A stretch of 64,000 nt of DNA from assembly GCA_001825665.1 (NCBI GenBank), contig MHXZ01000112.1:18994-82993 (forward strand), in the 5' to 3' direction. The notes below the pieces were generated by a model. It was not told where the DNA came from. It did not search any database and was given only the letters and a program-made list of their open reading frames with translations. Shown here piece by piece: positions 15,743 through 33,688 of the stretch. Position 1 is the first letter of the stretch, and each line of letters begins with the position of its first letter. The translations under genes and the position numbers were made by a program. The stretch comes from Planctomycetes bacterium GWF2_41_51. GTDB taxonomy: Bacteria; Planctomycetota; Phycisphaerae; Sedimentisphaerales; UBA12454.

Positions 15743-15846
15743 AATACCTAAAATTGAAAATTTAAGATAAGTAGGTTGTTTTTTCAGCCGATTATGTATT
15801 TAGTAAAAATTTTATGTATAAATCGCTTTTCGAAAGGAGATTTAAG

Positions 15847-16164: not shown

Positions 16165-16188
16165 AAACGGATTCCGTAGAGGATAAGT

Positions 16189-16224
16189 AAAGGGATGGCT
16201 GTAAAGTCATCCCTTTATTTTTGG
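16189..16224 (+). terminator. Rho-independent terminator/attenuator after the major pseudopilin gene
   Basis: AAAGGGATG-gctgtaaagt-CATCCCTTT followed by ATTTTTGGTTT, 25 nt after the stop. Confidence 0.75.
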
Positions 16225-16232
16225 TTTGAAAA

Positions 16233-16688
16233 ATGAAAAAGAACGCAAAAGCCTTTACTCTTGCTGAAATGCTTATAGTCGTATTGATAATAAGCGCGTT
16301 TACTTTCATTGCCGTTCCAAGAATGGGAATGGCGACAATTTTCAGGGGCAAATCAGAAATAGCGGCAAATCAAATCGCTTCCGCAATCAGGCTTTGCAGA
16401 ACGCTTGCTATAGATAATGCAGCAGTAAATAAGCAGGGTTACAGTTTAAATATGACAGGAAGCGGCCAATACAGTGGTTTCCAAATCGTCAATCTGCAAA
16501 CAAACCAGATAGTGAAATCGGAAACAATTCCAACCAGTGTCAGTTGTAAAGGAACTGGTAACTTCAGATTCAATCCTCTGGGCAGCAGAACAGACGGCAA
16601 CGGTATACTAATGGTCACAGGCGGCGGAAAAAATTATAAATTATCCGTTATTTCATCAACGGGAATGGTCAGATGCGAAAAAAATTAA
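16233..16688 (+). CDS. Minor pseudopilin (GspH-position)
   Basis: MKKNAKA|FTLAEMLIVVLIISAFTFIAVP prepilin-type leader, in the gene-order position of GspH. Confidence 0.7.
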   Translation: MKKNAKAFTLAEMLIVVLIISAFTFIAVPRMGMATIFRGKSEIAANQIASAIRLCRTLAIDNAAVNKQGYSLNMTGSGQYSGFQIVNLQTNQIVKSETIPTSVSCKGTGNFRFNPLGSRTDGNGILMVTGGGKNYKLSVISSTGMVRCEKN

Positions 16689-17065
16689 GAAGACGACAAG
16701 GTTTTACATTGCCGGAAGTTCTGACAGCAAGTGCCCTGCTTGTAATTGCATTCGTGCCGATATTAAAAGCACTTACGCAGATTAATTTGAGTACGGTTAT
16801 AATTGAAAGAAGAACAAAAAGCCTGAACCTGGCTAAAATGAAAATAAATCATCTGCACGCAAAATCAATTAAAAATTTTGATGATGATTTTTCCGAAAGT
16901 AATTTAGTTCTCGATAGTTTTTATTTGTGTAACATTTCAAATCAATCAGTAAACGGCAACCTGAAATCAATCGTGGTTTCAGTAGGTATGGATCGCAACG
17001 GCAACAGAACTCTCGACAGCAGTGAAGTAGAGATTTCACTTCAAACCCAATTAGCACGCAGATAA
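16673..17065 (+). CDS. Minor pseudopilin (GspI-position)
   Basis: RRRQG|FTLPEVLTASALLVIAFVP prepilin-type leader. It overlaps the upstream gene by 16 nt. Confidence 0.7.
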   Translation: MRKKLRRRQGFTLPEVLTASALLVIAFVPILKALTQINLSTVIIERRTKSLNLAKMKINHLHAKSIKNFDDDFSESNLVLDSFYLCNISNQSVNGNLKSIVVSVGMDRNGNRTLDSSEVEISLQTQLARR

Positions 17066-17239
17066 TTATAGGACGCATTTTCAGCAACATCAAAAAAATA
17101 CCTTTTTTGGTGTTAGTGTCCGATAAAACGTCATTTATTTTGCCCCAATAAAGGTTTTTGGCGATATTTGTATTCTTTTGGCAATTATACATTTGAAGTT
17201 AGCAAGCAGTGTTTATAAGCCGATATTTCAAAAGAAGTA

Positions 17240-19174
17240 ATGAGACAAAGTATGTATATGCGCAAAGAAAAATTAAAAAAGGCATTTACGCTGATGGAGC
17301 TGATGGTTTCAGCTGCGCTGCTGCTTGTGATAATGGCGGCAATTGTTCCGCAGTTTCGCGCAATACGCAATAGCTGGGCAACAACCCAGGACTCTTCTGT
17401 AAAAATTCAAAACGGTCTTGTACTCGATGAACATCTAAACAGAAATCTCACAACGGCTTCACAAATAACAGCTGTCAGTTCGAGCGAAGTTGGAAATGGG
17501 TTTATAACTTTCAAGGATAATCTCGGAGCAACTCAAAAATATATGGTCGAAGACGGCTATATCGTATTCGGTCCTGTTGGACATGAAGAACAACTCGCAG
17601 GCCCTGTCAGCAAATTTCAGATAAGCTGCTATTCGCTGAATGATTTAGAAAATCCAATGACAGATGTTAGCAGGATCCGACTGGTTAAGATTGAAACAGA
17701 AATTACAAATAGCGATTCTCAGAGTTCGGCTAACAAAGTTATTTCAGAAGTTTTCATACAAACAAACAAATCAACTATATCAGACCAGAACGTTATTGAT
17801 ATAATTATCAATCCTGACCAGCCTGACACCGCTTATGATTACACAGAAGGCGACCATGGCTGCGATGCAGTTATCGAAATTGAAAAGAACAGTACTCAAG
17901 GTCTCTTGTGCTTTAAAGGCATTGTTGGCAACGCAAGCTGGCAAATACCGCAGAATACCGAAATTACCGAAGCGAAACTGGAACTTTGGTGTGTTAATCA
18001 TAACGGCAATCATGATGTTTACATATATCGAATGAATGTCGGGTGGACTGAAACCTCAACATGGAACAACATCGGCGGAGGAATCATTCCGGGTACGAAC
18101 TGCGATTCGATGAGCGTTGTAACAGCAAATCTCGGAAACAGTGTTCCAACTTCGGTCGAGATTGATGTAACCGAAATTGTGCGGGGATGGATCAACGGCG
18201 ATTATCCAAATTTCGGATTCGGTTTCATCAACAGCAAAAATAACAGTCTTCAATTTGCCGCAGCGGAAAACAGAACAGGAACCGGTGCTCATACTCCGCG
18301 GCTTATAATTAGTTATCAGTCAACTGATAACAATCCTAAAATCGCTTTGAAAAATACATTAAATTACGGCGGCTCACACGGTATTATCGACAGTTATAAT
18401 TCAAGTGCAGGTTTTTACGGCGGAAGCAATATTTCTCATAATGCAGTTGTTACATCAAACGCGATCGGAAGCGACATAATAACACTTTACAGCGGCGGCA
18501 GGATTTACGGTGATGCATACATCGGACCGGGCGGCAATCCTGCTATTGGATTTTCAACATGGGGCTCTACAATCACCGGTGAAGAAGGAACTCTTGATGA
18601 AGCCGTCGATTTGCCAACTCCAACTGCACCGACAGGTCATCCTTTTCATGGTTGGCACGAAGGAGATTTCCCGAGCAATGACTGGCTCGGCGGTGAACGA
18701 ATACTTAACAGTAATCATTATTTTAACAGTATTTCTATCTGGAGTTCTTATATCACTATCAACGGCAACATTACAGTTTTATTAAATAATGACCTGAATA
18801 TCGGCAGCGGCCGAAGTATAAGAATTCCTCCGGGTTCGAGCCTGAATCTATACGTCAAAGGCAATTGTAACATAGGCGGAGATATAAATTCATTTTTTGA
18901 TCGACTGCCTTCAAATTTAAAAATTTATATGATCGGCAATAATAAATCTTTCAGCACATGGGGCACTGGAAATGTTTATGCCCTGCTTGATAATCCAAAT
19001 GGTTCGGTCAGCCTTTGGGGCGGGCAATTTTATGGGCGAATAAAAGCAAAATATCTTTCAGGCGGATGCAAAATTCACGTTGACCTCGATTCGAATTTCG
19101 GCAGCGGAGGAGGAAGCCCAAGTAGACTGTGGACTTTCGGCGGAAATATTATTCAGGGCGAGATACTGCCATAA
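17240..19174 (+). CDS. Giant minor pseudopilin (GspJ-position) with a DNRLRE-like domain and a C-terminal beta-helix-like module
   Basis: KLKKA|FTLMELMVSAALLLVIMAAIVP prepilin-type leader; the start may be the ATG at 17258. The middle segment (EAKLELWCVNHNGNHDVYIYRMNVGWTETSTWNNIG...VEIDVTEIVRGWINGDYPNFGFGF...) resembles the DNRLRE secreted-protein domain. The C-terminus has G/N-rich repeats ending ...GRIKAKYLSGGCKIHVDLD. Confidence 0.7.
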   Translation: MRQSMYMRKEKLKKAFTLMELMVSAALLLVIMAAIVPQFRAIRNSWATTQDSSVKIQNGLVLDEHLNRNLTTASQITAVSSSEVGNGFITFKDNLGATQKYMVEDGYIVFGPVGHEEQLAGPVSKFQISCYSLNDLENPMTDVSRIRLVKIETEITNSDSQSSANKVISEVFIQTNKSTISDQNVIDIIINPDQPDTAYDYTEGDHGCDAVIEIEKNSTQGLLCFKGIVGNASWQIPQNTEITEAKLELWCVNHNGNHDVYIYRMNVGWTETSTWNNIGGGIIPGTNCDSMSVVTANLGNSVPTSVEIDVTEIVRGWINGDYPNFGFGFINSKNNSLQFAAAENRTGTGAHTPRLIISYQSTDNNPKIALKNTLNYGGSHGIIDSYNSSAGFYGGSNISHNAVVTSNAIGSDIITLYSGGRIYGDAYIGPGGNPAIGFSTWGSTITGEEGTLDEAVDLPTPTAPTGHPFHGWHEGDFPSNDWLGGERILNSNHYFNSISIWSSYITINGNITVLLNNDLNIGSGRSIRIPPGSSLNLYVKGNCNIGGDINSFFDRLPSNLKIYMIGNNKSFSTWGTGNVYALLDNPNGSVSLWGGQFYGRIKAKYLSGGCKIHVDLDSNFGSGGGSPSRLWTFGGNIIQGEILP

Positions 19175-19179
19175 AGAAT

Positions 19180-19575
19180 ATGAAAAAAGAAATGAAACAT
19201 AATGGTTCAGTTTTATTGATAGCAATTTTTACAATTGCCCTGCTGACGGCGTTTGTTGTGGGAATGCTGCAGCTTAACAGTGAACAGTTCCAGATTATGA
19301 AAAATGAAATATTCGCCGCTCAGGCGAATTTAATCGCTGAGGCAGGTATTGCCGATGCTTTTGCCCGTATCCGCAGCAGTCGAGCTCTGCCGCCGAATTT
19401 CAACCGCAATTTCGGGGGCGGTTCGTACAGCGTTACCGTTTCAGGTTCAATACCGAACCCGAATTTTACATCGAGAGGAACTTCCCCGCAGGGATTTGTT
19501 TCTGATATTCAAGTCGATGTAACCATTGACAGCAACTCGTATGTTATTCGTATCGACAAGATGAGGATAAACTGA
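19180..19575 (+). CDS. GspK/PilX-like minor pseudopilin
   Basis: MKKEMKHNGSVLLIAIFTIALLTAFVVGMLQL is a PilX_N/GspK-type hydrophobic N-terminus without the Glu+5 motif. The start is set at the ATG at 19180, 6 nt after the upstream stop. Confidence 0.6.
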   Translation: MKKEMKHNGSVLLIAIFTIALLTAFVVGMLQLNSEQFQIMKNEIFAAQANLIAEAGIADAFARIRSSRALPPNFNRNFGGGSYSVTVSGSIPNPNFTSRGTSPQGFVSDIQVDVTIDSNSYVIRIDKMRIN

Positions 19576-21083
19576 TGAATCCAAATCATAAAAAAGCAAT
19601 AGGCATAGATGTTTGCGGTAAGTTTGTGAATATCATTTGCCTTAAGAAGAACGGCAGAAAAATCATTCTGACCTACAGCAAACAATTACCGCTTGCCAAA
19701 GAAATTATAAACGGCGAAACCGGCGCAGCTTTGAAATCTCTTGCAGGCACTTTAAAGCATTTAAAATTGACAAAACGCCTTTCGCACTGCGAAGCAGGTT
19801 TATGTGTCTGCTCTTATCCTGAGCTTCTTCAGATTTTCAAACTTCCGGATTCTGCACCGCAGGCAGGAATAAAATTCATACAGGATGAAATTCGGCAATA
19901 CGCGGTTCTGCCTCTTAAAAATATTAAGACAGATTATTGTATGCTGCAGGGAAATATGGGTTCTGAAAACAGACGCGTTCTTGTAGGAGCGTGTCAACCG
20001 GAGCCGTTTGCAGAGGCGGCTAAAGAACTGGAAAAGATTCAAATCGATGTCAACCTGGTAGAACCTGCTATAGTTTCACTTATCAGAGCATGCTATAGAA
20101 AAGTCATTATGCAGACAGAGCATAAGAATACAATATTCATTCTTCTGCGAGATGATGTTATAAACCTTTGCGTATTTAACGGAAGTAAGTTCGATTTTCT
20201 GCGTACAAAGAAAATCGATTGTAATAATTCAGAGCAAAACTCCCCTGCCGAGGTTATCGCAGAACAGGTGGAATCCGTTATCCAATACTACGAACTTGAG
20301 AAAGCTTCTGATCAAAATAAATGGCAATTATTTTTAAACTGCTGTCCGCATACATCTGAAAGTCCGCGAATGGCGGAGCAACTAAAAAAGCTTACAAATC
20401 GCCAAAATTTGGAAATTTATGCGATTGGACCAGAACATATAGGCATAGAATCAGAAAATAAAAATACAGTTGATTTTTCAGTTGTGGCTGTTGGAGCGGC
20501 AATGAAGCTGCTCGATTGCAACGATTCTCAAATCAGTATTAATATGATTCCCGATGAACTATCGGAAATCAGGAAATCGTACAAACATTTTCTTATGATA
20601 ATTAACACGGCAGCGGTAATTCTTTTGCTGTTATTTTTACACATTGCGCAGCTTTCGGTAAAAACGGCAGAAGCTAATACAGAAATATCCAAAAAATCCA
20701 AATCGCGATCAAATATTCCCCAGCTTGCTCGTGTTGAGGAAGACGTTAATTCGCAGACTTTACAGGTAACGAAACAAATAAATATTCTGCGCGACATTAA
20801 CAAAGACAGGGTATGGAATAATCTGGCCAATATATTAGTAGACATTTCAAATAAAGCGCCGGAAACAATACAGTTTCACACTATTGAGTCGAGAATTTCC
20901 GGCAAATTAACTATTGATGGCATAGCTGTGAGTTATGATGCTGTAAATAGTTTCATCGAAAAACTTGCAGCCTGCAAATCAATCAGTTCCACTCAAATTA
21001 CGTATGTCAAACAAAATATGCTTTACGGCAATGGTCTTGTAGATTTTTCAATAAATTGCACCCTTGCTGAGAAGGATAATTGA
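19575..21083 (+). CDS. GspL-like protein (PilM-type actin-like domain, TM helix, PilN-like periplasmic domain)
   Basis: The N-terminal KKAIGIDVCGKFVNIICL is a PilM-like phosphate-1 motif. There is one TM helix (FLMIINTAAVILLLLFLHIAQL), followed by a coiled coil and an alpha/beta domain. The start overlaps the upstream stop (TGATG at 19573-19577). Confidence 0.65.
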   Translation: MNPNHKKAIGIDVCGKFVNIICLKKNGRKIILTYSKQLPLAKEIINGETGAALKSLAGTLKHLKLTKRLSHCEAGLCVCSYPELLQIFKLPDSAPQAGIKFIQDEIRQYAVLPLKNIKTDYCMLQGNMGSENRRVLVGACQPEPFAEAAKELEKIQIDVNLVEPAIVSLIRACYRKVIMQTEHKNTIFILLRDDVINLCVFNGSKFDFLRTKKIDCNNSEQNSPAEVIAEQVESVIQYYELEKASDQNKWQLFLNCCPHTSESPRMAEQLKKLTNRQNLEIYAIGPEHIGIESENKNTVDFSVVAVGAAMKLLDCNDSQISINMIPDELSEIRKSYKHFLMIINTAAVILLLLFLHIAQLSVKTAEANTEISKKSKSRSNIPQLARVEEDVNSQTLQVTKQINILRDINKDRVWNNLANILVDISNKAPETIQFHTIESRISGKLTIDGIAVSYDAVNSFIEKLAACKSISSTQITYVKQNMLYGNGLVDFSINCTLAEKDN

Positions 21084-21084
21084 T

Positions 21085-21687
21085 ATGACTTCTGATATGC
21101 AAAATATTTCAAAACGAAATGTGATGGTTTCGGCGGTTTTGATAATAATCGCGATAGCCATTTATCACTGGTTTGTAACGCCGCATTCACAATATCTTAT
21201 GGCTGCGGAACAATATCAGAAAGCTATAGATACTATAGATAAGAAAAGCAAAATTCTCAACAGCCAGATTCAAATACGGCGAAAAAAACTTGAGAACCTG
21301 ACAAAAGAATTCGAGGAATATAAAGAAGGATATTTTGAAACTGAACAGGCAAAGGATTTTCTTTCGAATCTTCAGACTGCCGCCGAAAACAGCGGATGCG
21401 CAGTTAAAAACATAAAATTCCCGCCATCAAGGTATGCTCCTGTTAAAGGCAGTGAAGAGATGATAATTCATCAATACCAGGCTAATTTATCGCTGCAAGG
21501 TGAATACAGCAGCATCTTAAAATTTCTAAATACCATTCACAACAGACCTGAAAAAGTATGGGTGGAATCGATAAATTTTGAAATGAAAAACACAGAGAAT
21601 GGAGACCTCGGCTGCGATGTCACATTAAGTATTTACACATTAAAGGTTATGGAGCGCATTAAAAATGTTAACAATAAACAAAAATAG
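21085..21687 (+). CDS. GspM/PilO-like bitopic protein
   Basis: N-terminal TM helix (VMVSAVLIIIAIAIYHWFV), a coiled coil and a C-terminal ferredoxin-like region. The start is set at the ATG at 21085, which has GAAGGA upstream. Confidence 0.55.
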   Translation: MTSDMQNISKRNVMVSAVLIIIAIAIYHWFVTPHSQYLMAAEQYQKAIDTIDKKSKILNSQIQIRRKKLENLTKEFEEYKEGYFETEQAKDFLSNLQTAAENSGCAVKNIKFPPSRYAPVKGSEEMIIHQYQANLSLQGEYSSILKFLNTIHNRPEKVWVESINFEMKNTENGDLGCDVTLSIYTLKVMERIKNVNNKQK

Positions 21688-22918
21688 CAGATTAATTTTA
21701 ACGTTTATAATTCTTTTATCTGCATCAGTTTTCGCGGCAGAGGAAATCGATATCAATTCGATAACAAAAAGTAATCCTTTCGCGAGATTTACACCAAGGC
21801 AAGCAACTCCCGGCAGCGTCGCAGTAATTGATAAACCAGACCTGGTTGTTGAAACAGCTACGCTGAAATTCCTCGATGCAAAAAGTGTTAAAGCCTCAAT
21901 TATAAATATGGCAAGCAATTATGGGAACATTGAGACAGATGACAAAGTTAACGCGTTGATTATCTGCGATACGCGGGAGAATGTCGATAAAATTCTCCTG
22001 CAAATCCGAAAGATAGACCGCAAACCAGACCAGGTTATGATTGAAGTTGTCATCGTTGATGTGAAGCTCGATAACGAAACTGAAATCGGCGTTAACTGGG
22101 ATATGCTCACAAATGATTATAGAGATGCAGTTTACAGGCAAAATCTTAATTTTTCAAACCGTCTAACTGCTACACCTCAAACAGGTAACATAGAAAATGC
22201 AACTGCATTCAACACAATAGGTACTGCCGGGGATTTCTGGCTTATTATGGGAGATATAAGAACAGTCATTCATGCATTGCAGCAAAGAAACAAAGTAGAA
22301 ATTATCGCAAGTCCGCGCGTTATGGTATTGAGCGGACAGACAGCATCTATTGAGTCCGTCGAAGAGATACCATATTCCGAACTATCACAAACAAGCGAGG
22401 GAGGCTCGTTAACAAGTACACAGTTTAAAAATGTTGGCGTTACACTCGATATCGGTGCAACTTTAACAGATGATAAATATATCCTGTTAGATGTTGAATC
22501 AGGGCAAAAAGTCAGGACGGGTTCCAGCATCGACGGAGTACCCATTGTTGATGCAAGAGTAGTCAAGAGTTCTCTTCTGCTTGAAGATGGGCAGACTCTC
22601 GTAATAGGCGGACTGCGACGAAAGGAAATGCAGAAACAAACTAATCAAATTCCATTTCTTGGTGATATTCCTGTTGTTGGTTTGGCGTTTAAGGCCACGA
22701 ATACAGTCGAAAATAATTCGGAGCTTCTGATAATTCTTTCACCGCACATATACGCAGGTGAGAAACCAAACGCACAGCAAATGAAGAAATTTAATGAAAT
22801 AACCAAAAGACCTCTTCTGACTATTTCGGAATTCGAAGAAGAAAAAGAAAAAAAAGAAAGAAAAGAGAAAGCGGAAAAACTGAAAAAGGAAAAGGTAACG
22901 AAGAAGGTAACAAAATAG
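21665..22918 (+). CDS. gspD: Short secretin (one N1-type domain plus secretin domain) with a Lys/Glu-rich tail
   Basis: Signal peptide. Secretin_N-like segment (DDKVNALIICDTRENVDKILLQIRKIDRKPDQVMIEVVIVDV). Secretin core (VEIIASPRVMVLSGQTASI...LVIGGLRRKEMQKQTNQIPFLGDIPVVGLAFK). Tail EEEKEKKERKEKAEKLKKEKVTKKVTK. Confidence 0.8.
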   Translation: MLTINKNSRLILTFIILLSASVFAAEEIDINSITKSNPFARFTPRQATPGSVAVIDKPDLVVETATLKFLDAKSVKASIINMASNYGNIETDDKVNALIICDTRENVDKILLQIRKIDRKPDQVMIEVVIVDVKLDNETEIGVNWDMLTNDYRDAVYRQNLNFSNRLTATPQTGNIENATAFNTIGTAGDFWLIMGDIRTVIHALQQRNKVEIIASPRVMVLSGQTASIESVEEIPYSELSQTSEGGSLTSTQFKNVGVTLDIGATLTDDKYILLDVESGQKVRTGSSIDGVPIVDARVVKSSLLLEDGQTLVIGGLRRKEMQKQTNQIPFLGDIPVVGLAFKATNTVENNSELLIILSPHIYAGEKPNAQQMKKFNEITKRPLLTISEFEEEKEKKERKEKAEKLKKEKVTKKVTK

Positions 22919-22957: not shown

Positions 22958-24745
22958 ATGAATTGCAAGACAAACGTCGTTCATGTAACACACGAAGCGG
23001 TAAGCAAAATTGGCGGTATCGGCGCAGTGCTCGAAGGAATGCTCACAAATAAAGTTTATCTCGAATCAACGGGAAGAACAATTCTTATCAGCCCTCTCTT
23101 CTCCACTGACGGACCAGTAGAAAATCGTCTCGGTCTCGGAGGTGAGGTGCTTTATTCGAGTGTTGATGGTTTTGTGCAAACGGGATATAACGAAACTTTC
23201 AAACATATTGAAAAATATTTCAATGTCGATATCGTTTACGGCAGAAAACTTTTCGAAGACAGACGCCACGGTATTACAAGCTCGCCCGAAGTTATATTAA
23301 TTGATGTTCGTCAAATTAATGCTCATGCGATAAACGAATTCAAAAGACAATTGTTTGAGCATTTCGGCATATCGAGCATGAGATACGAGCACATCTGGGA
23401 TTATGAAGAATGGACAAGGCTCGCCCCGCCGGCAATCGCTGCTATCAAAGCAATAGGAGCCGCTCCTCATAACGGCAGCACCGTAGTATTCAGTCATGAG
23501 TTTATGGGAATGCCCACAGCACTTGCCGCCAAACTCGAACAAGACTGCAATTTCAGGACAGTTTTCTATGCGCACGAAGTTGCCACTGTCCGGCGAATAG
23601 TAGAAGATAGAACCGGTCACGATACAATGTTTTATAATGTAATGAACGCCGCAACTGCACGCGATATGTCGCTGCCTGATGTATTCGGAGACCAAAACGG
23701 CTATGCCAAACATGCACTTGTAAACGCTTCAAAATTTTGTGACAAAATATATGTAGTAGGCGACCTTGTCGGCGAAGAAATGAAATTCTTATCGAAGGAA
23801 TTCGACTCCGCTCAAATTCAACTCGCTTATAACGGCATCCCCGCTTATCAAATCAGTCTTGAAGAAAAAAATATTTCACGCAACAGATTGCGCCAGTACA
23901 GCAAAAATCTGCTCGGGTTCGAGCCGGATTATCTATTTTCTCACGTAACCCGGCTTGTACGCAGCAAAGGGCTTTGGCGGGATTTAAGGGTACTGGAGCA
24001 TATAGATAAAGAATTATGCGCACAGAACAAAACGGGAGTAATGTTCTTTTTGAGTACCGAAGTAGGCCCGCGAAGAGAACATGATATTCTGAAAATGGAA
24101 TCGGAATATCACTGGCCGGTTGTGCATCATGACAGGCTGCCGGATTTAAGCGGAGGTGAAGCTGTTTTTTACACAGCAGTTCAGGAGTTCAACGCAAGAA
24201 GCAGAAATGTAAAAGTTGTTTTTATAAACCAGTTCGGTTTCAACAGGCAACGCTGCGGCAATAGAATGCCCGAAGATATGGAATTCATGGATATCAGAAA
24301 AGGTACCGATGTCGAATTCGGCCAAAGCATCTATGAGCCGTTCGGAATTGCACAATTGGAGCCTTTGAGTTTTGGAGGTATATGCGTTGTAAGCAGCGTT
24401 TGCGGATGTGCCGGTTTTATTAAAAGAATCTGCAATCCTGAAGAAGTAAAAAATGTGATAATAGCGGACTACACTGATCTGAACGGAATGAAATTTAACA
24501 GTATGGATGAATTGCTCAAAATAAATCTTGAGACCAGAGACCGGCTGGAGCATCATATCAGTCAGAAAGTCGCAGTTCAAATACTCACGAATCTACCGCG
24601 CAGCGATGAGGATTTAGCCAATATGATTAATACAGGATATCTCCTGGCCGCACAGATGAGTTGGGATGTTGCCGTTGAGAATTATATTTTGCCCGGACTT
24701 CCAAAAACAGATGCAATAAAACAAGAATCAGTTTCATTAGCATAA
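22958..24745 (+). CDS. GT-B fold glycosyltransferase, glycogen-synthase (GT3/GT5)-like
   Basis: The N-terminal VVHVTHEAVSKIGGIGAVLEG resembles the E-x-x-x-K-[IV]-GG-[IL] motif of glycogen synthases. The C-terminal SIYEPFGIAQLEPLSFGG resembles the GT-B EX7E region. Confidence 0.5.
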   Translation: MNCKTNVVHVTHEAVSKIGGIGAVLEGMLTNKVYLESTGRTILISPLFSTDGPVENRLGLGGEVLYSSVDGFVQTGYNETFKHIEKYFNVDIVYGRKLFEDRRHGITSSPEVILIDVRQINAHAINEFKRQLFEHFGISSMRYEHIWDYEEWTRLAPPAIAAIKAIGAAPHNGSTVVFSHEFMGMPTALAAKLEQDCNFRTVFYAHEVATVRRIVEDRTGHDTMFYNVMNAATARDMSLPDVFGDQNGYAKHALVNASKFCDKIYVVGDLVGEEMKFLSKEFDSAQIQLAYNGIPAYQISLEEKNISRNRLRQYSKNLLGFEPDYLFSHVTRLVRSKGLWRDLRVLEHIDKELCAQNKTGVMFFLSTEVGPRREHDILKMESEYHWPVVHHDRLPDLSGGEAVFYTAVQEFNARSRNVKVVFINQFGFNRQRCGNRMPEDMEFMDIRKGTDVEFGQSIYEPFGIAQLEPLSFGGICVVSSVCGCAGFIKRICNPEEVKNVIIADYTDLNGMKFNSMDELLKINLETRDRLEHHISQKVAVQILTNLPRSDEDLANMINTGYLLAAQMSWDVAVENYILPGLPKTDAIKQESVSLA

Positions 24746-24757
24746 ATAAACTGGAAG

Positions 24758-26722
24758 TTATGGCATAAACGGCATCGGTCCGCCAGGCATATTCCCCGGC
24801 TGCATAGGCAAACTTTCATTTTCCATATTGCCCGGCTGATATGTGGGCGCTCTGCGAGTTGTTCCGCTCGATGCCTGTTCCCATGGCAGCAGTACTATAG
24901 GCGGAGCTTCAAGAGTTGCGGTAATATCTTTGTAAATCTTTGTAACATCTGCAGGCCAATTCTTTTCTTTAATCGGCATTTTCTCAATTTTATTGCCGTC
25001 AAAGCTGAACATCATTTCATAATAATCGCGAGAACGTAAAGTGCCGGTGCCGTACAATTCAGATATGCGGCGTGCGTCAACCATTACAGCTCCTGTAGAA
25101 AAATCTATCGGATCGCTGTTGATACCGGCATCCGCTAGTCTTGCATCTGCGTCTTCGTCAGCTCTGCCGATTTCTTCACCGCTTTTAACTGAATATTTTT
25201 TGCTTGCCCAGTTGCCGAGCATATACCTGGCAACTACAACTTCGACATTTTTATCCGTGCTGATACCTTTGGGATTGTCTCTTACTTCGATCGGGAAGAA
25301 GTATAACCTTTGCGGTATTTCAATAGTTGAGTTTACATCAGCAAAATCGCTCCATAATACTACCTGGTTACGATATTCTTTCTGCTCTTCAGTAAACAAA
25401 TCTCTGCCGGCGATCGGATTGAACACACCGACTCTTATTCGATACTGATATTTTTCGCCGGGTTTGGTTGTATCATCGTGAGCCCAGAAAACTAACTTGT
25501 CCAAATTTTCCAAACTATTTTCCGGCTTGATTTTGATTGCCTCGAAATCAGCTTCTTCTGTTATATCGGGCAAAGAAGGTGAGTTCGTAACTCTATCAGG
25601 ACGTGCCGGTCTTTCCCTCTCAGGTGTCGTTGGTTGTCTTCTCGTTTGCGTTGGCTGTCGAGGCGCGGCTTCACGACGAGAAGTAGTACGCGAAGGCGCC
25701 GCTTCCCTTCCTCTCCCGCCGATAGGTGTCATCTCATCGACATTTCTTGACGGGGTACGGGTTTCGCGAGTTTCACGTGCAGGAGTGCTTCTATCCTGAA
25801 GCCTTCTGGTTTTTTCGGCTTCCATTTCCTGACGGCGAATTTCTTCCTGCTGTTTTTCCAGCTTAACCTGCCGTTTGTTATAAAAAGAGGGACTTATCCA
25901 CATATCGGCAGGTATCGCGTTGCAATAAACCTGGGGTTGGATAACTTCCTCGCGAAATTCATCTTTGGCAAACTGAACCAGCGCCATTTCTATTCCATAT
26001 TCACTTGGCTCTTCAGGGATAGCCAGATTCTTTTTGAGATAACATATCTTAGTCTGAGGAACTTCAGCCCAATCGCTCCAACTGCCATCCGGCTGCAACG
26101 TTTTTTTCTGAAGCTGAACTTTAGCGAAAACAGGTTTGGCATATTGTTCTTTGCGTTTTTCGGCAGGAAAACTTCTGCCCGCAAATGATTCTCTGAATTT
26201 GGCGTAAAGAGTTTTAATATCAATCGACGACTCAACTGTTACAAGATCCAAATCCTCAATTTTTTTCTCAGCACTTTCATAAGTAACCGTCATCGAAAGC
26301 TCTTCCAACGGCACAAAAGCCGCCATTCTTACAACCGATGAACTTGGCCTTTCTATCCGGCCTATATTAGGAATTTTATAGGTGAACTTTAAGGAATCTT
26401 CAAGTTTTTGCGATTGATTGCCGGCCAGCGGAAATTTTATATTATCATTTACATCTTTGCCAATCGGATTATTTAACAACGCAAGAAATTGAACCTGCTT
26501 CGATACATATTTTATATTTTCATTCGGTTCATCATTCATTCTTGCGTCGAGTCGCATCGCTTTTTGATGAATTGCATCATCAATTTCCGAAGGACCTGCG
26601 CCATCGACATTAGGGCTCTTAAAGACAAAAACAAAAAGTATAATAAGCGACAGAAACGCCGCTGCTGCGATTATAATCTTATCGATATAAAGTTCGATAT
26701 AATTTGTTTTTTTCATTCCCAT
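24758..26722 (-). CDS. Hypothetical membrane-anchored protein (654 aa), third gene of the PilM-like operon
   Basis: N-terminal TM helix (IIIAAAAFLSLIILFVFVF). A ~90-aa Arg/Pro/Thr/Glu-rich linker. A C-terminal domain containing LVFWAHDDTTKPGEKYQYRIRVGVFNP. A Gly/Met/Pro tail PGNMENESLPMQPGNMPGGPMPFMP. The start overlaps the upstream stop (TAATG at 26720-26724). Confidence 0.7.
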   Translation of the reverse strand: MGMKKTNYIELYIDKIIIAAAAFLSLIILFVFVFKSPNVDGAGPSEIDDAIHQKAMRLDARMNDEPNENIKYVSKQVQFLALLNNPIGKDVNDNIKFPLAGNQSQKLEDSLKFTYKIPNIGRIERPSSSVVRMAAFVPLEELSMTVTYESAEKKIEDLDLVTVESSIDIKTLYAKFRESFAGRSFPAEKRKEQYAKPVFAKVQLQKKTLQPDGSWSDWAEVPQTKICYLKKNLAIPEEPSEYGIEMALVQFAKDEFREEVIQPQVYCNAIPADMWISPSFYNKRQVKLEKQQEEIRRQEMEAEKTRRLQDRSTPARETRETRTPSRNVDEMTPIGGRGREAAPSRTTSRREAAPRQPTQTRRQPTTPERERPARPDRVTNSPSLPDITEEADFEAIKIKPENSLENLDKLVFWAHDDTTKPGEKYQYRIRVGVFNPIAGRDLFTEEQKEYRNQVVLWSDFADVNSTIEIPQRLYFFPIEVRDNPKGISTDKNVEVVVARYMLGNWASKKYSVKSGEEIGRADEDADARLADAGINSDPIDFSTGAVMVDARRISELYGTGTLRSRDYYEMMFSFDGNKIEKMPIKEKNWPADVTKIYKDITATLEAPPIVLLPWEQASSGTTRRAPTYQPGNMENESLPMQPGNMPGGPMPFMP

Positions 26723-27969
26723 TATTGCATGCCTCCTGGCATTCCCGGCATTCCATACCCTCCTCCTTGATTACCGGAATCGTAGGAAGGAGAACCTGTT
26801 GAAGATGTTCCGGCAATATCATCACTGATTGATTGAGGTTTAATTACATCATATCCCTGGCGATTGAAGACATATTCGCAAATCAAATCCAAACTAACAA
26901 CCGCATCAGAGCCGTAGTAGTATCTTTTATTTTCCGCACTGTTTCTGTCAACAGGGGTGATACTGCTTTCAAGTACCGTAATTTGATTATGTTTGTATTT
27001 TTCAGGAGACAATTCTCCTTTATACCCGGCGAAATTATGCTCCTTCTCACTGCAAAGAGCAGACATAAATTTCAGCACGTCATCTGCTCTGACTATTGCT
27101 GAAACCTTAAAATGAACTACATCAATTTTTTCATTACACTTTCTGCCAGTCCAGGGTTGACACAAACCGCCAACCGTTTCATTAACATAAACAGGCAAAT
27201 CTAAACCGCTGTCTCTGGTGCCCTCGGTGAATTTGACAGAAAGAAGCCTTTTAACTGATGATTCATCAACGCTCGATGAACCTGCATTTATTGAATTGAT
27301 GGTATCGATGACATCCTGATGAATCCAGCAGGCAAGCTGACAATACCAGCAATCTTTAACGGCGCTTTCTGTTCCTTTATATTCCCAATTGTCCCAAAAA
27401 GCGTATCCGCTGAAAACCCAGGGATTAGCATAAACAGGAATTTCCTGACTGCGGCTTTTGCAGATAAGTTCTACAATTTTATCGTCGCCTTTTGTTCCGG
27501 GCGAATAACTTTCATTTCCGGCCGAGATAGTAACAGAACCTGCAAGTTTTCTTATTTCATTGTCCGTAGGAGCATCCAATGCTTTTAAGTTTTTCACATA
27601 ACCGGCAAAAGCCGTGTTATATTCTCTTTTGAATTCATTGAAAATCTGCATCGATGTCTCATTGGGATCCGGAAATATCTTATAACTAAGCAGTTCCCTT
27701 TGCGTTGTTTGCATTGCGAGCTTGTCAATTTGGTTTGCGTCGATTTCGTGGCTATCCTGATGCTTTTTCTCAATTTCCGGTTGCCGTGACGAAACTATAG
27801 TATTGAGCATTGAATTGATGCTTCTGCCTAAACTTGCGCTTTCCTCGAGTTTATTGCTTATTTTGCCGCGCAACATAACAGACGGAATCAAAAGCAATAA
27901 CGCTGCGGCAGCTATTACCGCCGGTATAATTATTGCCATATTCTTTTTTATAATTTTAACTACATCCAT
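26722..27969 (-). CDS. Hypothetical membrane-anchored protein (415 aa), second gene of the PilM-like operon
   Basis: N-terminal TM helix (MAIIIPAVIAAAALLLLIPSVML), a Cys/Trp-rich soluble domain (DCWYCQLACWIHQDVIDTINSIN) and a tail GNQGGGYGMPGMPGGMQ. The start is moved to the ATG at 27969, 24 nt after the upstream stop. Confidence 0.7.
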   Translation of the reverse strand: MDVVKIIKKNMAIIIPAVIAAAALLLLIPSVMLRGKISNKLEESASLGRSINSMLNTIVSSRQPEIEKKHQDSHEIDANQIDKLAMQTTQRELLSYKIFPDPNETSMQIFNEFKREYNTAFAGYVKNLKALDAPTDNEIRKLAGSVTISAGNESYSPGTKGDDKIVELICKSRSQEIPVYANPWVFSGYAFWDNWEYKGTESAVKDCWYCQLACWIHQDVIDTINSINAGSSSVDESSVKRLLSVKFTEGTRDSGLDLPVYVNETVGGLCQPWTGRKCNEKIDVVHFKVSAIVRADDVLKFMSALCSEKEHNFAGYKGELSPEKYKHNQITVLESSITPVDRNSAENKRYYYGSDAVVSLDLICEYVFNRQGYDVIKPQSISDDIAGTSSTGSPSYDSGNQGGGYGMPGMPGGMQ

Positions 27970-27992
27970 ATATACGTCTTTCGTAGTTCGGT

Positions 27993-30161
27993 TTAATAAG
28001 TTCCCACTAATTGTTCCTGTGAAGGTTCTTTCCAGAGGAATTTTGCTCTGATTCTGAACCATCTGTCTCTTTCAATATAAAGAGGCTTTCCGAAAGAATC
28101 TATCTTCTTTCTGCCTTTTTCATCAAGCTCAAACGTTTTGCTGATTTCTTCATTTGTAAGCGGGTCGATGAGAACCAGTTCGCTTGCGACATGATCGGCT
28201 GATTCGCCTCTGCCAACCGTCCTGCCGCCTCGGCCGGTCGCAGTCGCAGGTTGTTCTTCATCAACGGAGCCTCTTGTTTTAAGCAGAGGGACGCCAATTC
28301 CTGCCGGCATCTTGTTATCTGTAATCTCAACAAGGCCTGTTTCCGTTCTGAAATGTTCGATTTTTCCCTTATTAAACAATTGGAATGGACTGTTGCCATC
28401 AAAAAAATAATTAAGATTCATCATTCGAGTAACAATGCCCCATTTATTGGGGTCGCTTCCAACACCTGCCGGGTCCATCAATTCGCCAATTCTTTCATAA
28501 GGCGTATAACCTTCGATAACAACTACAAAACCTTTCCCGTCTGCCGCTTGGCCTGTCGGGTCGATAGTTTCGCCACCATAACTTGCATCTGCGGTCCTGA
28601 CAGTTCGCCCGCCCCTGCCGCTTGTTTCAAACGAAGCGCTCGCGATACTGTCGTAATACATTACATTAAGGCTTGTTATAAATACCTGCTTGCGTTCGTT
28701 TCTCTGCACTGCAAGTATCTTACTGATATCGCCTTGCGTGTAAGCATCGCAAATATCTTTCTGCTGAGGAAGGCATTTAAAGATTGTTTGATGAAGCAAC
28801 GGAATTACTTCACGGTATTTAAAAATCTGCATCTGATTGTCAATCTGTTGTTTATACGTATCATTTCTTGACTTTTGCGCCTGCAGCTCCGATTCTATAT
28901 TTCTTGCTTTTTGAAGTATTGCTTCGGTTGCCTGCTTTTTCGGCGATGAACCTCCGGAATCAATGCTCTTGAGGTCAAATACTGTTTTAAGCAATCCGAG
29001 CAGTGATGCGGCAATCAGAATTATCGCTGCCGTTGTGAAAAATTTGCTTTTGCGAGCCCACATCATTCTGCGCGCAATTCCCTTGGGTAGAAGATTGCTG
29101 TTGATTTTCGCGTAACCGAGCGCCTGCACACCAAGGCCATAAGTAACGGCAAGGTCGCAAATGCTGTCGTGCAGCTTTGCGCTTGAAACACTGGCTGATG
29201 GAACAAGTTTTTCGAATGAATCCGGCCTAACTACTGATAATTGCGTAGTTTGCTGAATATATTTGTTCAGGCCCTGAAGTTTAAAACCGCCGCCGAGCAA
29301 TACTATTTTTGTGTAAGCCGTGCCTCTGTGACTGCCGCTGAAATATCCCAAAGAACGCTGCACTTCGGCGCCTAAATCCGTAAAAACGGGTTTCATAGCG
29401 TGGAAAATCTGTCTTGCGTATTTGCTGACAGGAGCGCCGCGTTTGAGTTTTTCAGCTTTTGCAAAATCGAGTTTAAAGGCGTCAGCGATTGCTTTCGTAA
29501 AGTTATTGCCGCCTAAGGGGATACATCTCTGCCAGACAGATAATTTTGTGCAAATCACAAGATTTGTATCGGCAGAACCCATATCGAGAAGCACAACCGC
29601 TTTTTTGTCCTGGTCGTCGAGGTCGTTGCGGTCGAACTGAGCGTAATTATATAACGCCATCGGGGCCATCTGGACGAGGGTTACTCTCAGGTTTTCTGAT
29701 GAGAAATTATCGAGATATCTGCTGATAAGCTCGTTTTTTATCGCGAAAATACCGACTTCCACATCGGGACTATCGGGCTTGGGCATAATTTGCCAGTCCC
29801 ATTCCACTTCGTTAATATCGAATGGAATTTGCTGAACTGATTCAAATTTGATGATTTCGGGAATTTTTTTGGGTTCAACCGGAGGAAGCTTTATAAATCT
29901 TGCAAAACTCGTCTGGCCGGGAACTGAAACGGCTATCTCATCTTTGGCTAAGGAGTTGCGGCCTACAAAAGTCGCGAGGCTTGCACGAATTATTTGATTT
30001 TTTTCTTCTTCGCTGATACCATTTGCGTTTAGAATCCTGGGATGCTCGATATAGTCAAGTCCGGTTACCTCAATACGGTCGCCTGCCGCCTGAAGTCTTA
30101 GTGCTTTCAGAGAACTGCTGCCTATGTCGATTGCCCAAACAGAACGAGCGGCTGTTGCCAT
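27993..30161 (-). CDS. PilM-like actin-fold ATPase fused to a PilN-like TM/coiled-coil segment and a ~300-aa C-terminal extension
   Basis: VWAIDIGSSSLKALRL and VVLLDMGSADTNLVI are PilM phosphate-binding motifs. A TM helix FFTTAAIILIAASLLGLL sits near residue 370, followed by a coiled coil. The extension contains a duplicated GRGGRTV motif. Confidence 0.65.
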   Translation of the reverse strand: MATAARSVWAIDIGSSSLKALRLQAAGDRIEVTGLDYIEHPRILNANGISEEEKNQIIRASLATFVGRNSLAKDEIAVSVPGQTSFARFIKLPPVEPKKIPEIIKFESVQQIPFDINEVEWDWQIMPKPDSPDVEVGIFAIKNELISRYLDNFSSENLRVTLVQMAPMALYNYAQFDRNDLDDQDKKAVVLLDMGSADTNLVICTKLSVWQRCIPLGGNNFTKAIADAFKLDFAKAEKLKRGAPVSKYARQIFHAMKPVFTDLGAEVQRSLGYFSGSHRGTAYTKIVLLGGGFKLQGLNKYIQQTTQLSVVRPDSFEKLVPSASVSSAKLHDSICDLAVTYGLGVQALGYAKINSNLLPKGIARRMMWARKSKFFTTAAIILIAASLLGLLKTVFDLKSIDSGGSSPKKQATEAILQKARNIESELQAQKSRNDTYKQQIDNQMQIFKYREVIPLLHQTIFKCLPQQKDICDAYTQGDISKILAVQRNERKQVFITSLNVMYYDSIASASFETSGRGGRTVRTADASYGGETIDPTGQAADGKGFVVVIEGYTPYERIGELMDPAGVGSDPNKWGIVTRMMNLNYFFDGNSPFQLFNKGKIEHFRTETGLVEITDNKMPAGIGVPLLKTRGSVDEEQPATATGRGGRTVGRGESADHVASELVLIDPLTNEEISKTFELDEKGRKKIDSFGKPLYIERDRWFRIRAKFLWKEPSQEQLVGTY

Positions 30162-30241
30162 ATTTTTTCCGATAATTGCTTTTAAAAGTTAGGTTTATAA
30201 AATATTATCAAGACAAATAATTATAACAGATTACCTAAATT

Positions 30242-31510
30242 ATGCAAACTTTTGCTATAAATACTCTTGGCTGTAAAGTAAATCAATACGAATCCCAGCA
30301 GATTATACAATTTCTGACGGATTGCAAACTCTTATACGTACAAAGGTTCGAATCGGCCGAAATAATTATTATTCATACCTGCTGCGTAACGAAAACCGCT
30401 TCAGCCAAAAGCAGGCAGCTTGTCAATAAAGCTCAAAAACTCAATCCTAATGCTAAAATCATCGTTTCCGGCTGTCTTTTAAATTCGGAGCCGAAAGAGT
30501 TTGAATCTTTGAAGGACAAGGCACTGTTTGCATCTAATATCAATGAACTTTTTGAACTTCTCAAGAAAGAGCTGAACCTTAGCAACCCCCTGCCAATCAA
30601 AGGCTTACAAAAGTTCTGCGGTCAAACGCGGGCTTTTTTGAAAGTACAGGATGGATGCGATGGCTACTGTTCGTACTGCATCATTCCAACGACAAGACCC
30701 AATATCACGTTTAAGCCTGTTGAGCAAATTATAACAGAAACGCAAGACCTTGTCAAATCAGGACATAAAGAGATAATCCTTACCGGAATATTCCTCGGAG
30801 CATACGGTCAAAATACGGTAAAACGTAAAAATTGGCCGGATAATGAAAATCCATTACTGGCTGAAATGCTGGAGGAGGTGGCGCAAGTACCTGACCTTAA
30901 ACGAATTAGGTTAAGCTCGCTGGAACCGGCAGATGTTACTTCAAGATTGCTTGAAGTGATGAAAAATTATCCTAACATTATGCCGCACCTGCACTTATCA
31001 TTACAATCGGGTTCGGATAAAATCCTGAAAAAAATGAATCGGCAATATACCGTCAAAGACTTTCTTAACTCCATTGAAAACATCAATTTACAGCTTGACC
31101 GCCCTGCTATTACCACGGATGTCATCGTGGGATTTCCGGGCGAGACTATGCAGGATTTCGCGCAAAGTCTTTCAATTGCTAAACTTGCGGGCTTTTCCAA
31201 AATACATATCTTTCCATTCAGCAAACGAGTGGGAACAGCTGCGGAAAAATTGCAAGACCAGACAAGCAAAGAAGTTATAACGGAAAGAACCAAACAACTG
31301 CACGAACTGGAAAAACAGTTAGCTCAGAATTTCAGAAAGCAATTTATCGGCCAGACGGTGCAAGTCCTTATAGAGGATGAAGTTAAGAATTGCGGTAAAT
31401 GCGAGCGATATTATGAAATCATTGTGAAAACGGATGCCACATTGCCGAAAGGCGAAATTGTGAAATGCATAATCAACTCTGATGCAGTGACGGCAACGAT
31501 TGAAGTTTAG
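30242..31510 (+). CDS. mtaB: tRNA t6A37 methylthiotransferase MtaB (MiaB-like radical SAM)
   Basis: UPF0004 N-domain (FAINTLGCKVNQYESQ), radical SAM motif CDGYCSYCIIP, C-terminal TRAM-like domain, 422 aa in length. Confidence 0.8.
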   Translation: MQTFAINTLGCKVNQYESQQIIQFLTDCKLLYVQRFESAEIIIIHTCCVTKTASAKSRQLVNKAQKLNPNAKIIVSGCLLNSEPKEFESLKDKALFASNINELFELLKKELNLSNPLPIKGLQKFCGQTRAFLKVQDGCDGYCSYCIIPTTRPNITFKPVEQIITETQDLVKSGHKEIILTGIFLGAYGQNTVKRKNWPDNENPLLAEMLEEVAQVPDLKRIRLSSLEPADVTSRLLEVMKNYPNIMPHLHLSLQSGSDKILKKMNRQYTVKDFLNSIENINLQLDRPAITTDVIVGFPGETMQDFAQSLSIAKLAGFSKIHIFPFSKRVGTAAEKLQDQTSKEVITERTKQLHELEKQLAQNFRKQFIGQTVQVLIEDEVKNCGKCERYYEIIVKTDATLPKGEIVKCIINSDAVTATIEV

Positions 31511-32269: not shown

Positions 32270-33688
32270 ATGACTGGGGCGGTTAAATACATTTTGTTGT
32301 TTTCAATTCTCTTTACGGCGGCCGGAAATGCTTTTGCAGAGTGCAATGATTTTGAAATTGACGGGACGTGGGAAGCATCGCTGGATTTGCCGCGGATTAA
32401 TTTTCTGCTGAAAACATCTGCGAGCGGGCCGCCGATTGAAGTTGAGGGAGCGTTCGAGCTTAACTGGGCATTTCTGGATACCGGGGCATCGGGAATACTT
32501 CTTTCGCGAGAGACGACGGAGATAATGGGAATTAATAAAGAAACAAACGCTCAATTTGTCGATACGGGAATCGGGGGCGATGAGTTTTTCGATGTATCCG
32601 CACCTTTGTATGTCGGTACGCTAGACTTTGACAGCGATGAAATACAGGCATATAACCTTGACGAATATCATCTTTATCCGCAATGGAGGTTTCAGGTTTC
32701 ACGCGAATATGCGGAATGGCCTTCTGAGCCGCTGGACGTTTTGGGAATGCCTGTGATGGCGGGCAGGGTCGCGGTGCTTCGGCCGATTCAGGATTTGGAT
32801 ATAGGATGGGAGTGGGATATTGATTCGGAACAGACTATGGATGGCGAGGGGCAGATATATTTTTCTGCGGATATCAAAGACGCCAACGACCCGAATATAC
32901 CTGCGACGGATTTTCAGGTTGCGCTGCGGTTTGACAAATTCATTAACAAAACGAATCCGGGAAATATACCGCCTTTGCCTGTGCTTGGATATAATCCGGT
33001 TATAGACAATATTACAATCGAGAAAGACGGGTTAAGTTCGACGTGCAATCTGCTGCTTGATACAGGCGGGACGATAAGTATTATTTCTGTTGAGCATGGG
33101 ATGGCGCTGGGGCTTGTGGATGAAAATGGCGAACCGATAGTGCCTTATGATTTTTCGATACCGATTGGCGGAATCGGCGGAGAGGTTGAACTGCCGGGGT
33201 TTACGCTGGATAAGTTGTCTGTGCCGACGATGAACGGATTTAATCTTGTATATCTCAACGCGAGGGTTTGCGTGCATGATATCGGGATCCTTGACGAGGA
33301 CAGCGGAGAGTTTGAAATTATTGATGGGATTTTCGGCGATAATTTTATCTGTGCCTCGATGAATATCGATACGTGGGATATAAGCTCGACGCCATTCGAT
33401 AATATTGTTGTCGATATGCGGCGCGGGATTCTGGGATTTGATGTGAATCCGATTTATCCTGTGCCGAGCTGCAATTTTACCGGCTGCGGGAGCGCGAGCA
33501 TGCCCCGGCCTGCGGGTGATTTTACAGGAGATTGCGCGGTCGATATCGCGGATTTGCAAATCGTGGCGGAAGAATGGCTCAAAGATTGCGACTGGCTGAA
33601 TTTCAATTGCAGAGGGGCTGATATGGTTCGTGACGGGGTGATAGATTACAGGGATTTTAACGAATTGGCCAATCAGTGGCGTCTGTGA
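32270..33688 (+). CDS. Secreted tandem retropepsin-like aspartyl protease with a dockerin-like C-terminal module
   Basis: Signal peptide. Two copies of the retropepsin active-site context (WAFLDTGASGILLSRETTEIMGI and NLLLDTGGTISIISVEHGMALGL). The C-terminal GDFTGDCAVDIADLQIVAEEW...DMVRDGVIDYRDFNELANQW resembles paired dockerin/EF-hand repeats. Confidence 0.55.
   Translation: MTGAVKYILLFSILFTAAGNAFAECNDFEIDGTWEASLDLPRINFLLKTSASGPPIEVEGAFELNWAFLDTGASGILLSRETTEIMGINKETNAQFVDTGIGGDEFFDVSAPLYVGTLDFDSDEIQAYNLDEYHLYPQWRFQVSREYAEWPSEPLDVLGMPVMAGRVAVLRPIQDLDIGWEWDIDSEQTMDGEGQIYFSADIKDANDPNIPATDFQVALRFDKFINKTNPGNIPPLPVLGYNPVIDNITIEKDGLSSTCNLLLDTGGTISIISVEHGMALGLVDENGEPIVPYDFSIPIGGIGGEVELPGFTLDKLSVPTMNGFNLVYLNARVCVHDIGILDEDSGEFEIIDGIFGDNFICASMNIDTWDISSTPFDNIVVDMRRGILGFDVNPIYPVPSCNFTGCGSASMPRPAGDFTGDCAVDIADLQIVAEEWLKDCDWLNFNCRGADMVRDGVIDYRDFNELANQWRL

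Follow-up and report, generated by a model that had tools for sequence, protein, structure and literature searches.

A conserved, unannotated operon of Planctomycetota encodes a natural PilM-PilN fusion and a putative PilO/Amuc_1100-like partner

Three closely spaced genes on the minus strand of a planctomycete contig raise the question of whether they are a stray piece of the type IV pilus-like gene cluster nearby or the core of a separate system. The genes, here called gene 1, gene 2, and gene 3 (g1, g2, and g3), occupy positions 24758-30161 of a 64,000-nucleotide stretch of contig MHXZ01000112.1 from Planctomycetes bacterium GWF2_41_51 (hereafter the window, to which all coordinates refer unless another locus is named). 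A preliminary description, made from the letters and predicted reading frames, had pictured them as the inner-membrane scaffold of a separate and possibly undescribed trans-envelope machine. We found that the trio consists of real genes, not chance open reading frames (ORFs), and that it is a widespread, unannotated operon. With a probability of roughly 0.55, we favor the view that it encodes a self-contained and highly diverged PilM-PilN/PilO-type scaffold of the inner membrane, one that belongs to the type IV filament superfamily and whose genes Phycisphaerae-type Planctomycetota conserve as an operon. We further infer that the trio is a distant cousin of the MUL2 system of Akkermansia, with any partner machine encoded elsewhere or absent.

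Gene 1 (27993-30161, minus) encodes a 722-amino-acid (aa) protein that we identify as a natural PilM-PilN fusion with a large periplasmic extension. Gene 2 (26722-27969, minus) encodes a bitopic 415-aa protein with a PilO/Amuc_1100-like core fold in its AlphaFold2 (AF2) model, and gene 3 (24758-26722, minus) encodes a bitopic 654-aa protein with two folded domains and a disordered tether. All three products are deposited as "hypothetical protein" (that of g1 as "hypothetical protein A2Y10_12040"), and the 415-aa g2 protein has the same sequence (100% identity) as the protein deposited for Planctomycetes bacterium GWF2_41_51 under A2Y10_12035. The three coupled minus-strand reading frames, with their lengths, are as the preliminary description gave them, and so is the overlap at 26720-26724 (TAATG), where the stop of g2 and the start of g3 have base 26722 in common. 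A short gap does separate the g1 stop from the g2 start, but we counted 23 nt (27970-27992) where 24 nt had been given for 27969-27993. A longer, 446-aa version of g2 beginning at an in-frame ATG at 28062 was discarded, because the homologs, which align from residue 1 of the 415-aa form, and the deposited protein all begin at M32. A hydropathy scan found a single hydrophobic helix in each protein (residues 377-395 of g1, 11-29 of g2, and 16-34 of g3), which bears out the single membrane anchors described earlier for g2 and g3.

The trio is conserved as a unit of its own. A profile of g2 recovered relatives in 1554 clusters of 50% identity at E ≤ 1e-3, and in 238 at E ≤ 1e-30. Relatives are encoded in 249 reference species genomes, and all of the 80 genomes that we inspected from this set were metagenome-assembled genomes of Planctomycetota, with labels that were mostly Phycisphaerae or Sedimentisphaerales. 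Wherever all three genes were found (79/79 loci), they were colinear, on one strand, and in the same order, and the median gap between genes in related loci was about 50 nt. The trio occurs as a single copy, and two distant loci (L087 and L088) retain it at identities of about 50% for g1, about 30% for g2, and 25 to 35% for g3. We clustered all neighboring ORFs of 84 loci, and the conserved neighbors of the trio included none for an ATPase, platform protein, pilin, or secretin, so that the lack of such genes described earlier holds across these loci as well.

The N-terminal part of g1, residues 5-346 (29124-30149, minus), is a cytoplasmic PilM actin-like domain, as judged from both PilM profiles and PDB matches. 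Pfam PilM_2 (PF11104) matched residues 11-345 with an E value of 1e-34 (120.5 bits, cutoff 27), TIGR01175 (PilM) scored 135.9 bits against a cutoff of 133, and the PilM models together covered residues 9-346. Among PDB sequences, g1 matched the solved PilM chains 3jc8, 2ych, and 5eou, which come from M. xanthus, T. thermophilus, and P. aeruginosa, with E values of 3e-25 to 1e-13. The PilM-type signature that had been read from the sequence is therefore upheld by profiles that pass their cutoffs. Across 68 orthologs, the nucleotide motifs of the domain were retained at D12 (67/68) and at G14, K19, and G195 (68/68 each); further motif sites are residue 193, which is D or N, and G290-292, conserved in 65 to 68 of the 68. 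The PilM domain kept 50 to 60% identity even at the most distant loci.

Between this domain and the membrane helix, g1 carries a PilN-type motif, I-N-S-N-L-L-P, at residues 353-359 (29085-29105, minus). Its last four residues were present in nearly every ortholog (N356 in 66, L357 in 68, L358 in 67, and P359 in 68 of the 68). In type IVa pilus (T4aP) systems, an NLLP-type motif at the N terminus of PilN binds PilM. The NLLP peptide of g1 sits 17 residues ahead of the single transmembrane (TM) helix that the hydropathy scan placed at residues 377-395 (28977-29033, minus), and the alignment of g1 to 5eou, an engineered P. aeruginosa PilM-PilN chimera, extends through residue 359 and so spans the peptide. 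The TM helix is flanked by five K or R residues in the upstream 15 residues and by three in the downstream 15. A PilM domain, an NLLP peptide in cis, and a single TM helix show that g1 is a natural PilM-PilN fusion, as had been supposed when a PilN-like membrane segment was recognized behind the actin-like fold.

The best-scoring family for g1 was not a pilM family but NCBIfam Amuc_1101_fam (NF045709), with 225 bits and an E value of 2e-66 over positions 6-448 of the 608-position model, a match that runs from the PilM domain through the TM helix and coiled coil. Distant g1 orthologs likewise scored 246 to 262 bits with Amuc_1101_fam versus 136 to 164 bits with pilM. The periplasmic part that follows the helix (residues 396-722; 27996-28976, minus) comprises a probable coiled coil and then a conserved domain of about 270 aa, and it was conserved among 64 orthologs (alignment A3). 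We found no match for it among PDB sequences, a homolog search with the C-terminal part of g1 returned 14 proteins only, and hhalign comparisons among the periplasmic parts of g1, g2, and g3 gave no link.

The variable loops of g1 contain two copies of GRGGRTV, at residues 515-521 and 643-649 (28599-28619 and 28215-28235, minus). In the lineage of L006 and L027, the periplasmic domain of the g1 ortholog (inside L006:8707-9906) carries a CxxC...CxxC zinc-ribbon-like insert, CEGCGKIMLSQKPEKCPNCRDE, and a few g1 family members gave weak zinc-ribbon matches in Pfam.

For g2, the comparison of folds was more informative than that of sequences. The AF2 model (mean predicted local distance difference test [pLDDT] score of 83; predicted template modeling [pTM] score of 0.74) places a TM helix at 11-29 ahead of long helices that reach about residue 89; the α/β core spans about 107-386, and the tail is disordered and rich in G, M, and P. 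When the model was compared with the PDB using Foldseek, 11 of the 12 top matches were Amuc_1100 or PilO chains. The Amuc_1100 chains 6lad, 6kny, and 6laf took ranks 1-9 and 11 (E values of 2e-4 to 4e-3, probabilities of 0.96 to 1.0, and TM-scores of 0.41 to 0.48 to the target), and P. aeruginosa PilO was matched through 2rjz (E value of 3e-3, probability of 1.0, and TM-score of 0.51 to the target) and 5uvr (E value of 2e-2). We conclude, from matches of moderate strength, that the modeled core of g2 has a PilO/Amuc_1100-type fold. The window g2 protein had no match in Pfam, NCBIfam, or the PDB sequences, and PilO (PF04350) went unmatched at E ≤ 1. The earlier impression that neither g2 nor g3 belongs to a recognizable family thus holds for Pfam and NCBIfam, but the fold of g2 does find relatives in Amuc_1100 and PilO. 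Four cysteines are conserved in g2 (C170, C207, C306, and C364), which is compatible with a periplasmic location.

The AF2 model of g3 (pLDDT score of 81, pTM score of 0.69) shows a TM helix at 16-34, a folded N-terminal domain at about 115-312, a linker at 313-387, a β-rich C-terminal domain at 388-620, and a G/P/M-rich disordered tail, with both domains modeled at pLDDT scores above 90. The linker, or tether (25562-25786, minus; pLDDT scores below 50), is disordered and rich in R, G, T, and P. A tether was found in 96 of 96 aligned homologs, with a length of 30 to 122 aa and a net charge of +1 to +19 in all of them. Neither the PDB (best E value of 0.07) nor the BFVD viral models (best E value of 0.01) offered a significant match to the modeled fold, and hints of FN3- or Ig-like folds were insignificant. 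The g3 protein had no match in Pfam, NCBIfam, or the PDB sequences, and every one of the best 120 homologs listed is unnamed or "hypothetical."

Low-complexity periplasmic segments occur in all three genes of the trio, and the homologs keep their composition, not their sequence. The C-terminal tails are G/M/P-rich, as in GMPGMPGGMQ and PGNMPGGPMPFMP, at 24761-24862 in g3 and 26725-26805 in g2 (both minus). Across homologs, the g3 tails are rich in G, P, R, and M, and the G/M/P tail of g2 is confined to the closer clade.

Several results weigh against a PilM-PilN/PilO-type scaffold and must be set beside those that favor it. The g1 protein is not a member of the Amuc_1101 family, since it scored 225 bits against an equivalog cutoff of 650 and left the C-terminal 160 positions of the model unmatched. 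Its periplasmic part, which the preliminary description put at about 300 aa and could not assign, is indeed an extension of about 325 aa with no Pfam match, and none of the C-terminal parts of 64 orthologs matched PilN (PF05137) at E ≤ 1. A PilN-like pattern can be seen there by eye (LLxxxIxxxLP, a strand, a loop, and GFVVxIxGY), but we do not claim it, because splicing the loop out in nine orthologs yielded no PilN match; with the variable loop excised, the periplasmic parts left PF05137 unmatched even at E ≤ 10. Nor did hhalign link this part to the PilN domain of the neighboring cluster (E value of 0.61). The fold matches of g2 are modest (TM-scores of 0.41 to 0.51 normalized to the target, with a high root mean square deviation), in part owing to flexible helices. 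When 89 g2 family members were compared with NCBIfam, no pilus family was matched except by 1 of the 89, which touched Amuc_1100_fam (NF038287) at an E value of 0.05. The g2 profile aligned to the Amuc_1100 sequence, checked against 6lad, with an hhalign E value of only 0.32, and the relationship is therefore visible in structure only. Among 65 g3 family members there was no family match, PilP and GspC included, and the Foldseek search showed no similarity of g3 to PilP or GspC in fold either. Finally, the 84 loci revealed no partner pilin, secretin, or ATPase as a conserved neighbor of the trio.

Taking both sides together, we think that the most likely role of the trio is that of an envelope scaffold for a pilus-like surface or uptake apparatus, and not that of a spare part for the neighboring pilus cluster. 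This assignment is by analogy, since the nearest described system is MUL2, which Akkermansia needs to acquire mucin. In such a scaffold, the NLLP peptide of g1 would dock in cis into the PilM groove, and the periplasmic parts of g1 and g2 could pair via their helices and cores, as in PilMNOP or GspL-M-C. The g3 protein, which holds the pilP position in the pilMNOP order, might project its C-terminal β-domain deep into the periplasm by means of the tether, toward the peptidoglycan or some partner in the outer membrane, while the cytoplasmic PilM domain of g1 would connect this assembly with a partner whose gene lies elsewhere. The trio would then be part of a separate trans-envelope machine; no outer-membrane or filament partner was found. 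A bolder version of this proposal makes the trio the planctomycetal core of a MUL2-type apparatus found throughout the Planctomycetes-Verrucomicrobia-Chlamydiae (PVC) group that captures large polymers, such as polysaccharides and glycoproteins, and imports them into the periplasm. It would share a common origin with the Akkermansia system but would have been remodeled, gaining new periplasmic domains as well as a basic tether, and it would operate although the locus holds no secretin or pilin gene dedicated to it. We regard this extension as doubtful.

Only two neighbors of the trio recurred when the ORFs of the 84 loci were clustered, a divergent mtaB and a convergent gene resembling those of glycoside hydrolase family 2 (GH2). 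In the window, mtaB (30242-31510, plus) encodes a tRNA ms2t6A methylthiotransferase (TIGR01579, 387 bits, cutoff 357). The gene lay divergent to the trio and within 1.5 kb of it in 49 of the 56 loci with enough upstream sequence, and it was the sole widely conserved neighbor, in tight synteny with g1. A functional link between mtaB and the trio was considered and set aside, with nothing beyond synteny in its support, and mtaB is probably genomic context instead of a functional part of the system. The 80-bp gap that separates g1 from mtaB has its best promoter-like site at 30220-30248 (minus; TTTGCA-17-TATAAT with an upstream TG), which agrees with the consensus at 10 of 12 positions and is a consensus match only. 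The GH2 β-mannosidase-like gene was convergent just past g3 in 18 of the 84 loci (L004 13350-15872, L006 13249-15753, and 16 others) and was the sole recurring carbohydrate-related neighbor.

On the other side of the trio lies a type IV pilus/type II secretion system (T2SS)-like cluster (12840-22918, plus), which encodes PilB/GspE, PilC/GspF, five prepilins, a PilM-PilN fusion of 502 aa, a PilO-like protein of 207 aa, and a secretin that is unusually short at 417 aa, and which is complete in itself. The secretin is the only one in the window and scored 84 bits with Amuc_1098_fam against a cutoff of 750. The 1.8 kb from the secretin to g3 are occupied by an ORF of 595 aa (22958-24745, plus) with weak matches to group 1 glycosyltransferases and glycogen synthases, which stays together with the secretin in close relatives only. 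Within the cluster, a 644-aa protein (17240-19174, plus) combines a prepilin N-terminal methylation motif with DUF7305 and a domain of carbohydrate-binding type (DNRLRE/CBM96). Judging from its predicted domains, it resembles a giant minor pilin and may bind glycans. Elsewhere in the window, a 472-aa protein (32270-33688, plus) contains two segments resembling aspartyl proteases and, at its C terminus, a dockerin domain, and two large ORFs, of 600 aa (7877-9679, minus) and 820 aa (42401-44863, minus), had no match in Pfam or NCBIfam.

The proximity of this cluster invites the explanation that the trio is an accessory or alternative alignment module for the neighboring machine, or for some other ordinary type IV filament system of the same genome, from which it would borrow PilB, PilC, and the secretin and to which it would supply a PilP-like link. 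The trio lacks its own motor, no PilP-like gene was recognized in the cluster, and the glycosyltransferase-like ORF that follows the cluster secretin ends just 13 nt from the trio, a layout repeated in the closest relatives (L007-L010, L013, and L015). That adjacency is gone, however, in all but a few loci: the secretin, PilO-like, and PilM-PilN genes of the cluster were near the trio in 6 or 7 of the 84 loci, all of them close relatives, and away from these the genes past g3 encode a glycoside hydrolase or a sugar kinase. The cluster and the trio are also convergent, and the cluster comes with its own PilM-PilN fusion and PilO-like protein, neither of which detectably resembles g1 or g2 outside the NLLP/TM stretch (hhalign gave no link between g2 and the PilO-like protein, with an E value of 0.18). 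Because the adjacency is not conserved, we rule out that the trio completes this cluster, as the preliminary description had also judged, and we consider the broader idea of a borrowed module unlikely. The trio could alternatively be an ordinary T4aP PilMNOP alignment subcomplex that has diverged and been split from pilQ, pilB, and pilA. Its gene order does fit M(N)-O-P, g1 passes the PilM cutoffs, and g2 has a PilO-like fold, but no family member matched a PilN, PilO, or PilP profile, and g3 lacks the PilP fold. Typical PilO and PilP proteins are about 200 and 170 aa long, so that g2 is about twice and g3 more than three times the usual size, and the trio was never found beside pilQ, pilB, or pilA in related genomes save for the convergent adjacency in a few close relatives. 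An ordinary subcomplex is thus highly improbable, and we reject it, as it is ruled out by the profile and fold tests.

A different kind of explanation dispenses with filaments altogether and sees in the trio an FtsA/PilM-type domain tethered to periplasmic domains that organize the envelope, peptidoglycan, or division. Its appeal lies in part in the pattern of conservation, the PilM domain keeping 50 to 60% identity where mtaB keeps 45 to 50% and g3 about 30%, and in the single-copy, very widespread occurrence of the trio next to housekeeping genes (mtaB, efp, and recO). The g1 protein also matched the Pfam FtsA SHS2 domain (E value of 7e-10), and the basic tether of g3 could conceivably bind peptidoglycan. 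According to a review, no planctomycete retains ftsZ and most have also lost ftsA. Yet g1 scored about 136 bits as PilM and only 36.5 bits with TIGR01174 (ftsA), far below the cutoff of 175.85, and pilus and secretion platforms are characterized by just such an NLLP peptide and PilO-fold partner. Since none of the 84 loci showed dcw or mre genes linked to the trio either, we find a filament-independent scaffold rather unlikely, somewhat more so than a borrowed module, and retain the PilM-PilN/PilO-type scaffold of the type IV filament superfamily as our reading of the trio.

Planctomycetota take up whole macromolecules by a mechanism whose workings and players are unknown, and they divide without FtsZ, as reviewed elsewhere. 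The trio is compact, single-copy, strongly conserved, and set apart from motors, pilins, and secretins. Given this compactness, conservation, and separateness, together with a make-up of PilM-PilN and a PilO/Amuc_1100 fold, it offers a concrete and genetically tractable candidate for macromolecule uptake or for FtsZ-less division. If the polymer-uptake proposal were true, its products would give macromolecule uptake in Planctomycetota its first molecular players. If the trio is merely a diverged alignment module, it shows how far a PilMNOP scaffold can be remodeled and uncoupled from its machine. In addition, the g2 family (the 1554 clusters) and the g3 family are two sizeable protein families for which Pfam and NCBIfam hold no model.

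How, then, does the trio compare with systems that are already known? It resembles PilM-PilN-PilO-PilP of T4aP in the PilM nucleotide motifs of g1, in the NLLP peptide with a single TM helix behind it, in the PilO-like fold of g2, and in g3, which stands where PilP would and whose tether is disordered and C-terminal domain β-rich. It differs in that its PilM and PilN are fused, its periplasmic domains are two to four times larger and go undetected by PilN, PilO, and PilP profiles, g3 is TM-anchored and has an extra N-terminal domain, and pilQ, pilB, pilC, and pilA are not linked to it. Its architecture is also that of GspL-GspM-GspC of the T2SS, where an actin-like domain is fused via one TM helix to a periplasmic domain and followed by a bitopic protein of the PilO/GspM fold and then by a bitopic linker protein; MshI-MshJ-MshK of the mannose-sensitive hemagglutinin (MSHA) pilus share the same architecture. 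The trio has, however, no GspM or GspC profile match and no linked GspD, GspE, GspF, or GspG. When GspL was tested with PF05134 and TIGR01709, g1 reached 16.3 bits with PF05134, below the cutoff of 25.5. GspL is not known to carry the nucleotide motifs, whereas g1 retains them. With FtsA, g1 shares an actin-like subfamily with an SHS2 insert, but it is anchored by a TM helix, not by an amphipathic helix, and it carries a PilN motif.

The closest comparison is with MUL2. In published work on Akkermansia, the Amuc_1098-1102 (MUL2) proteins appear as abundant envelope components, Amuc_1100 is noted as PilO/PilN-like, and the locus is described as important for mucin acquisition and mechanistically uncharacterized; published MUL2 surveys are confined to Verrucomicrobiota. 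Amuc_1101_fam is the top family for g1, and Amuc_1100 is the top structural match for g2. Both loci contain a PilM-like gene, a PilO-fold gene, and a gene for a third membrane-anchored protein, in an order that fits locus tags 1101-1100-1099, and Akkermansia and the host of the trio both belong to the PVC group. The differences are nevertheless substantial. The g1 score falls well short of the 650-bit family cutoff and its periplasmic part is unlike the C terminus of Amuc_1101, g2 has no Amuc_1100_fam match, g2 and g3 show no sequence relation to the Akkermansia proteins, and no Amuc_1102-like pilin or Amuc_1098-like secretin adjoined the trio as a conserved neighbor at the 84 loci, a result that concerns the locus only. 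Because Amuc_1101_fam is the top family for g1, the kind of system to which the trio belongs has already been described in Akkermansia, which refines the suggestion that the machine might be undescribed. Because the trio falls below the Akkermansia family cutoffs and has neither the pilin-like gene nor the secretin gene found at MUL2, we take it to be a diverged variant, not a member of that locus.

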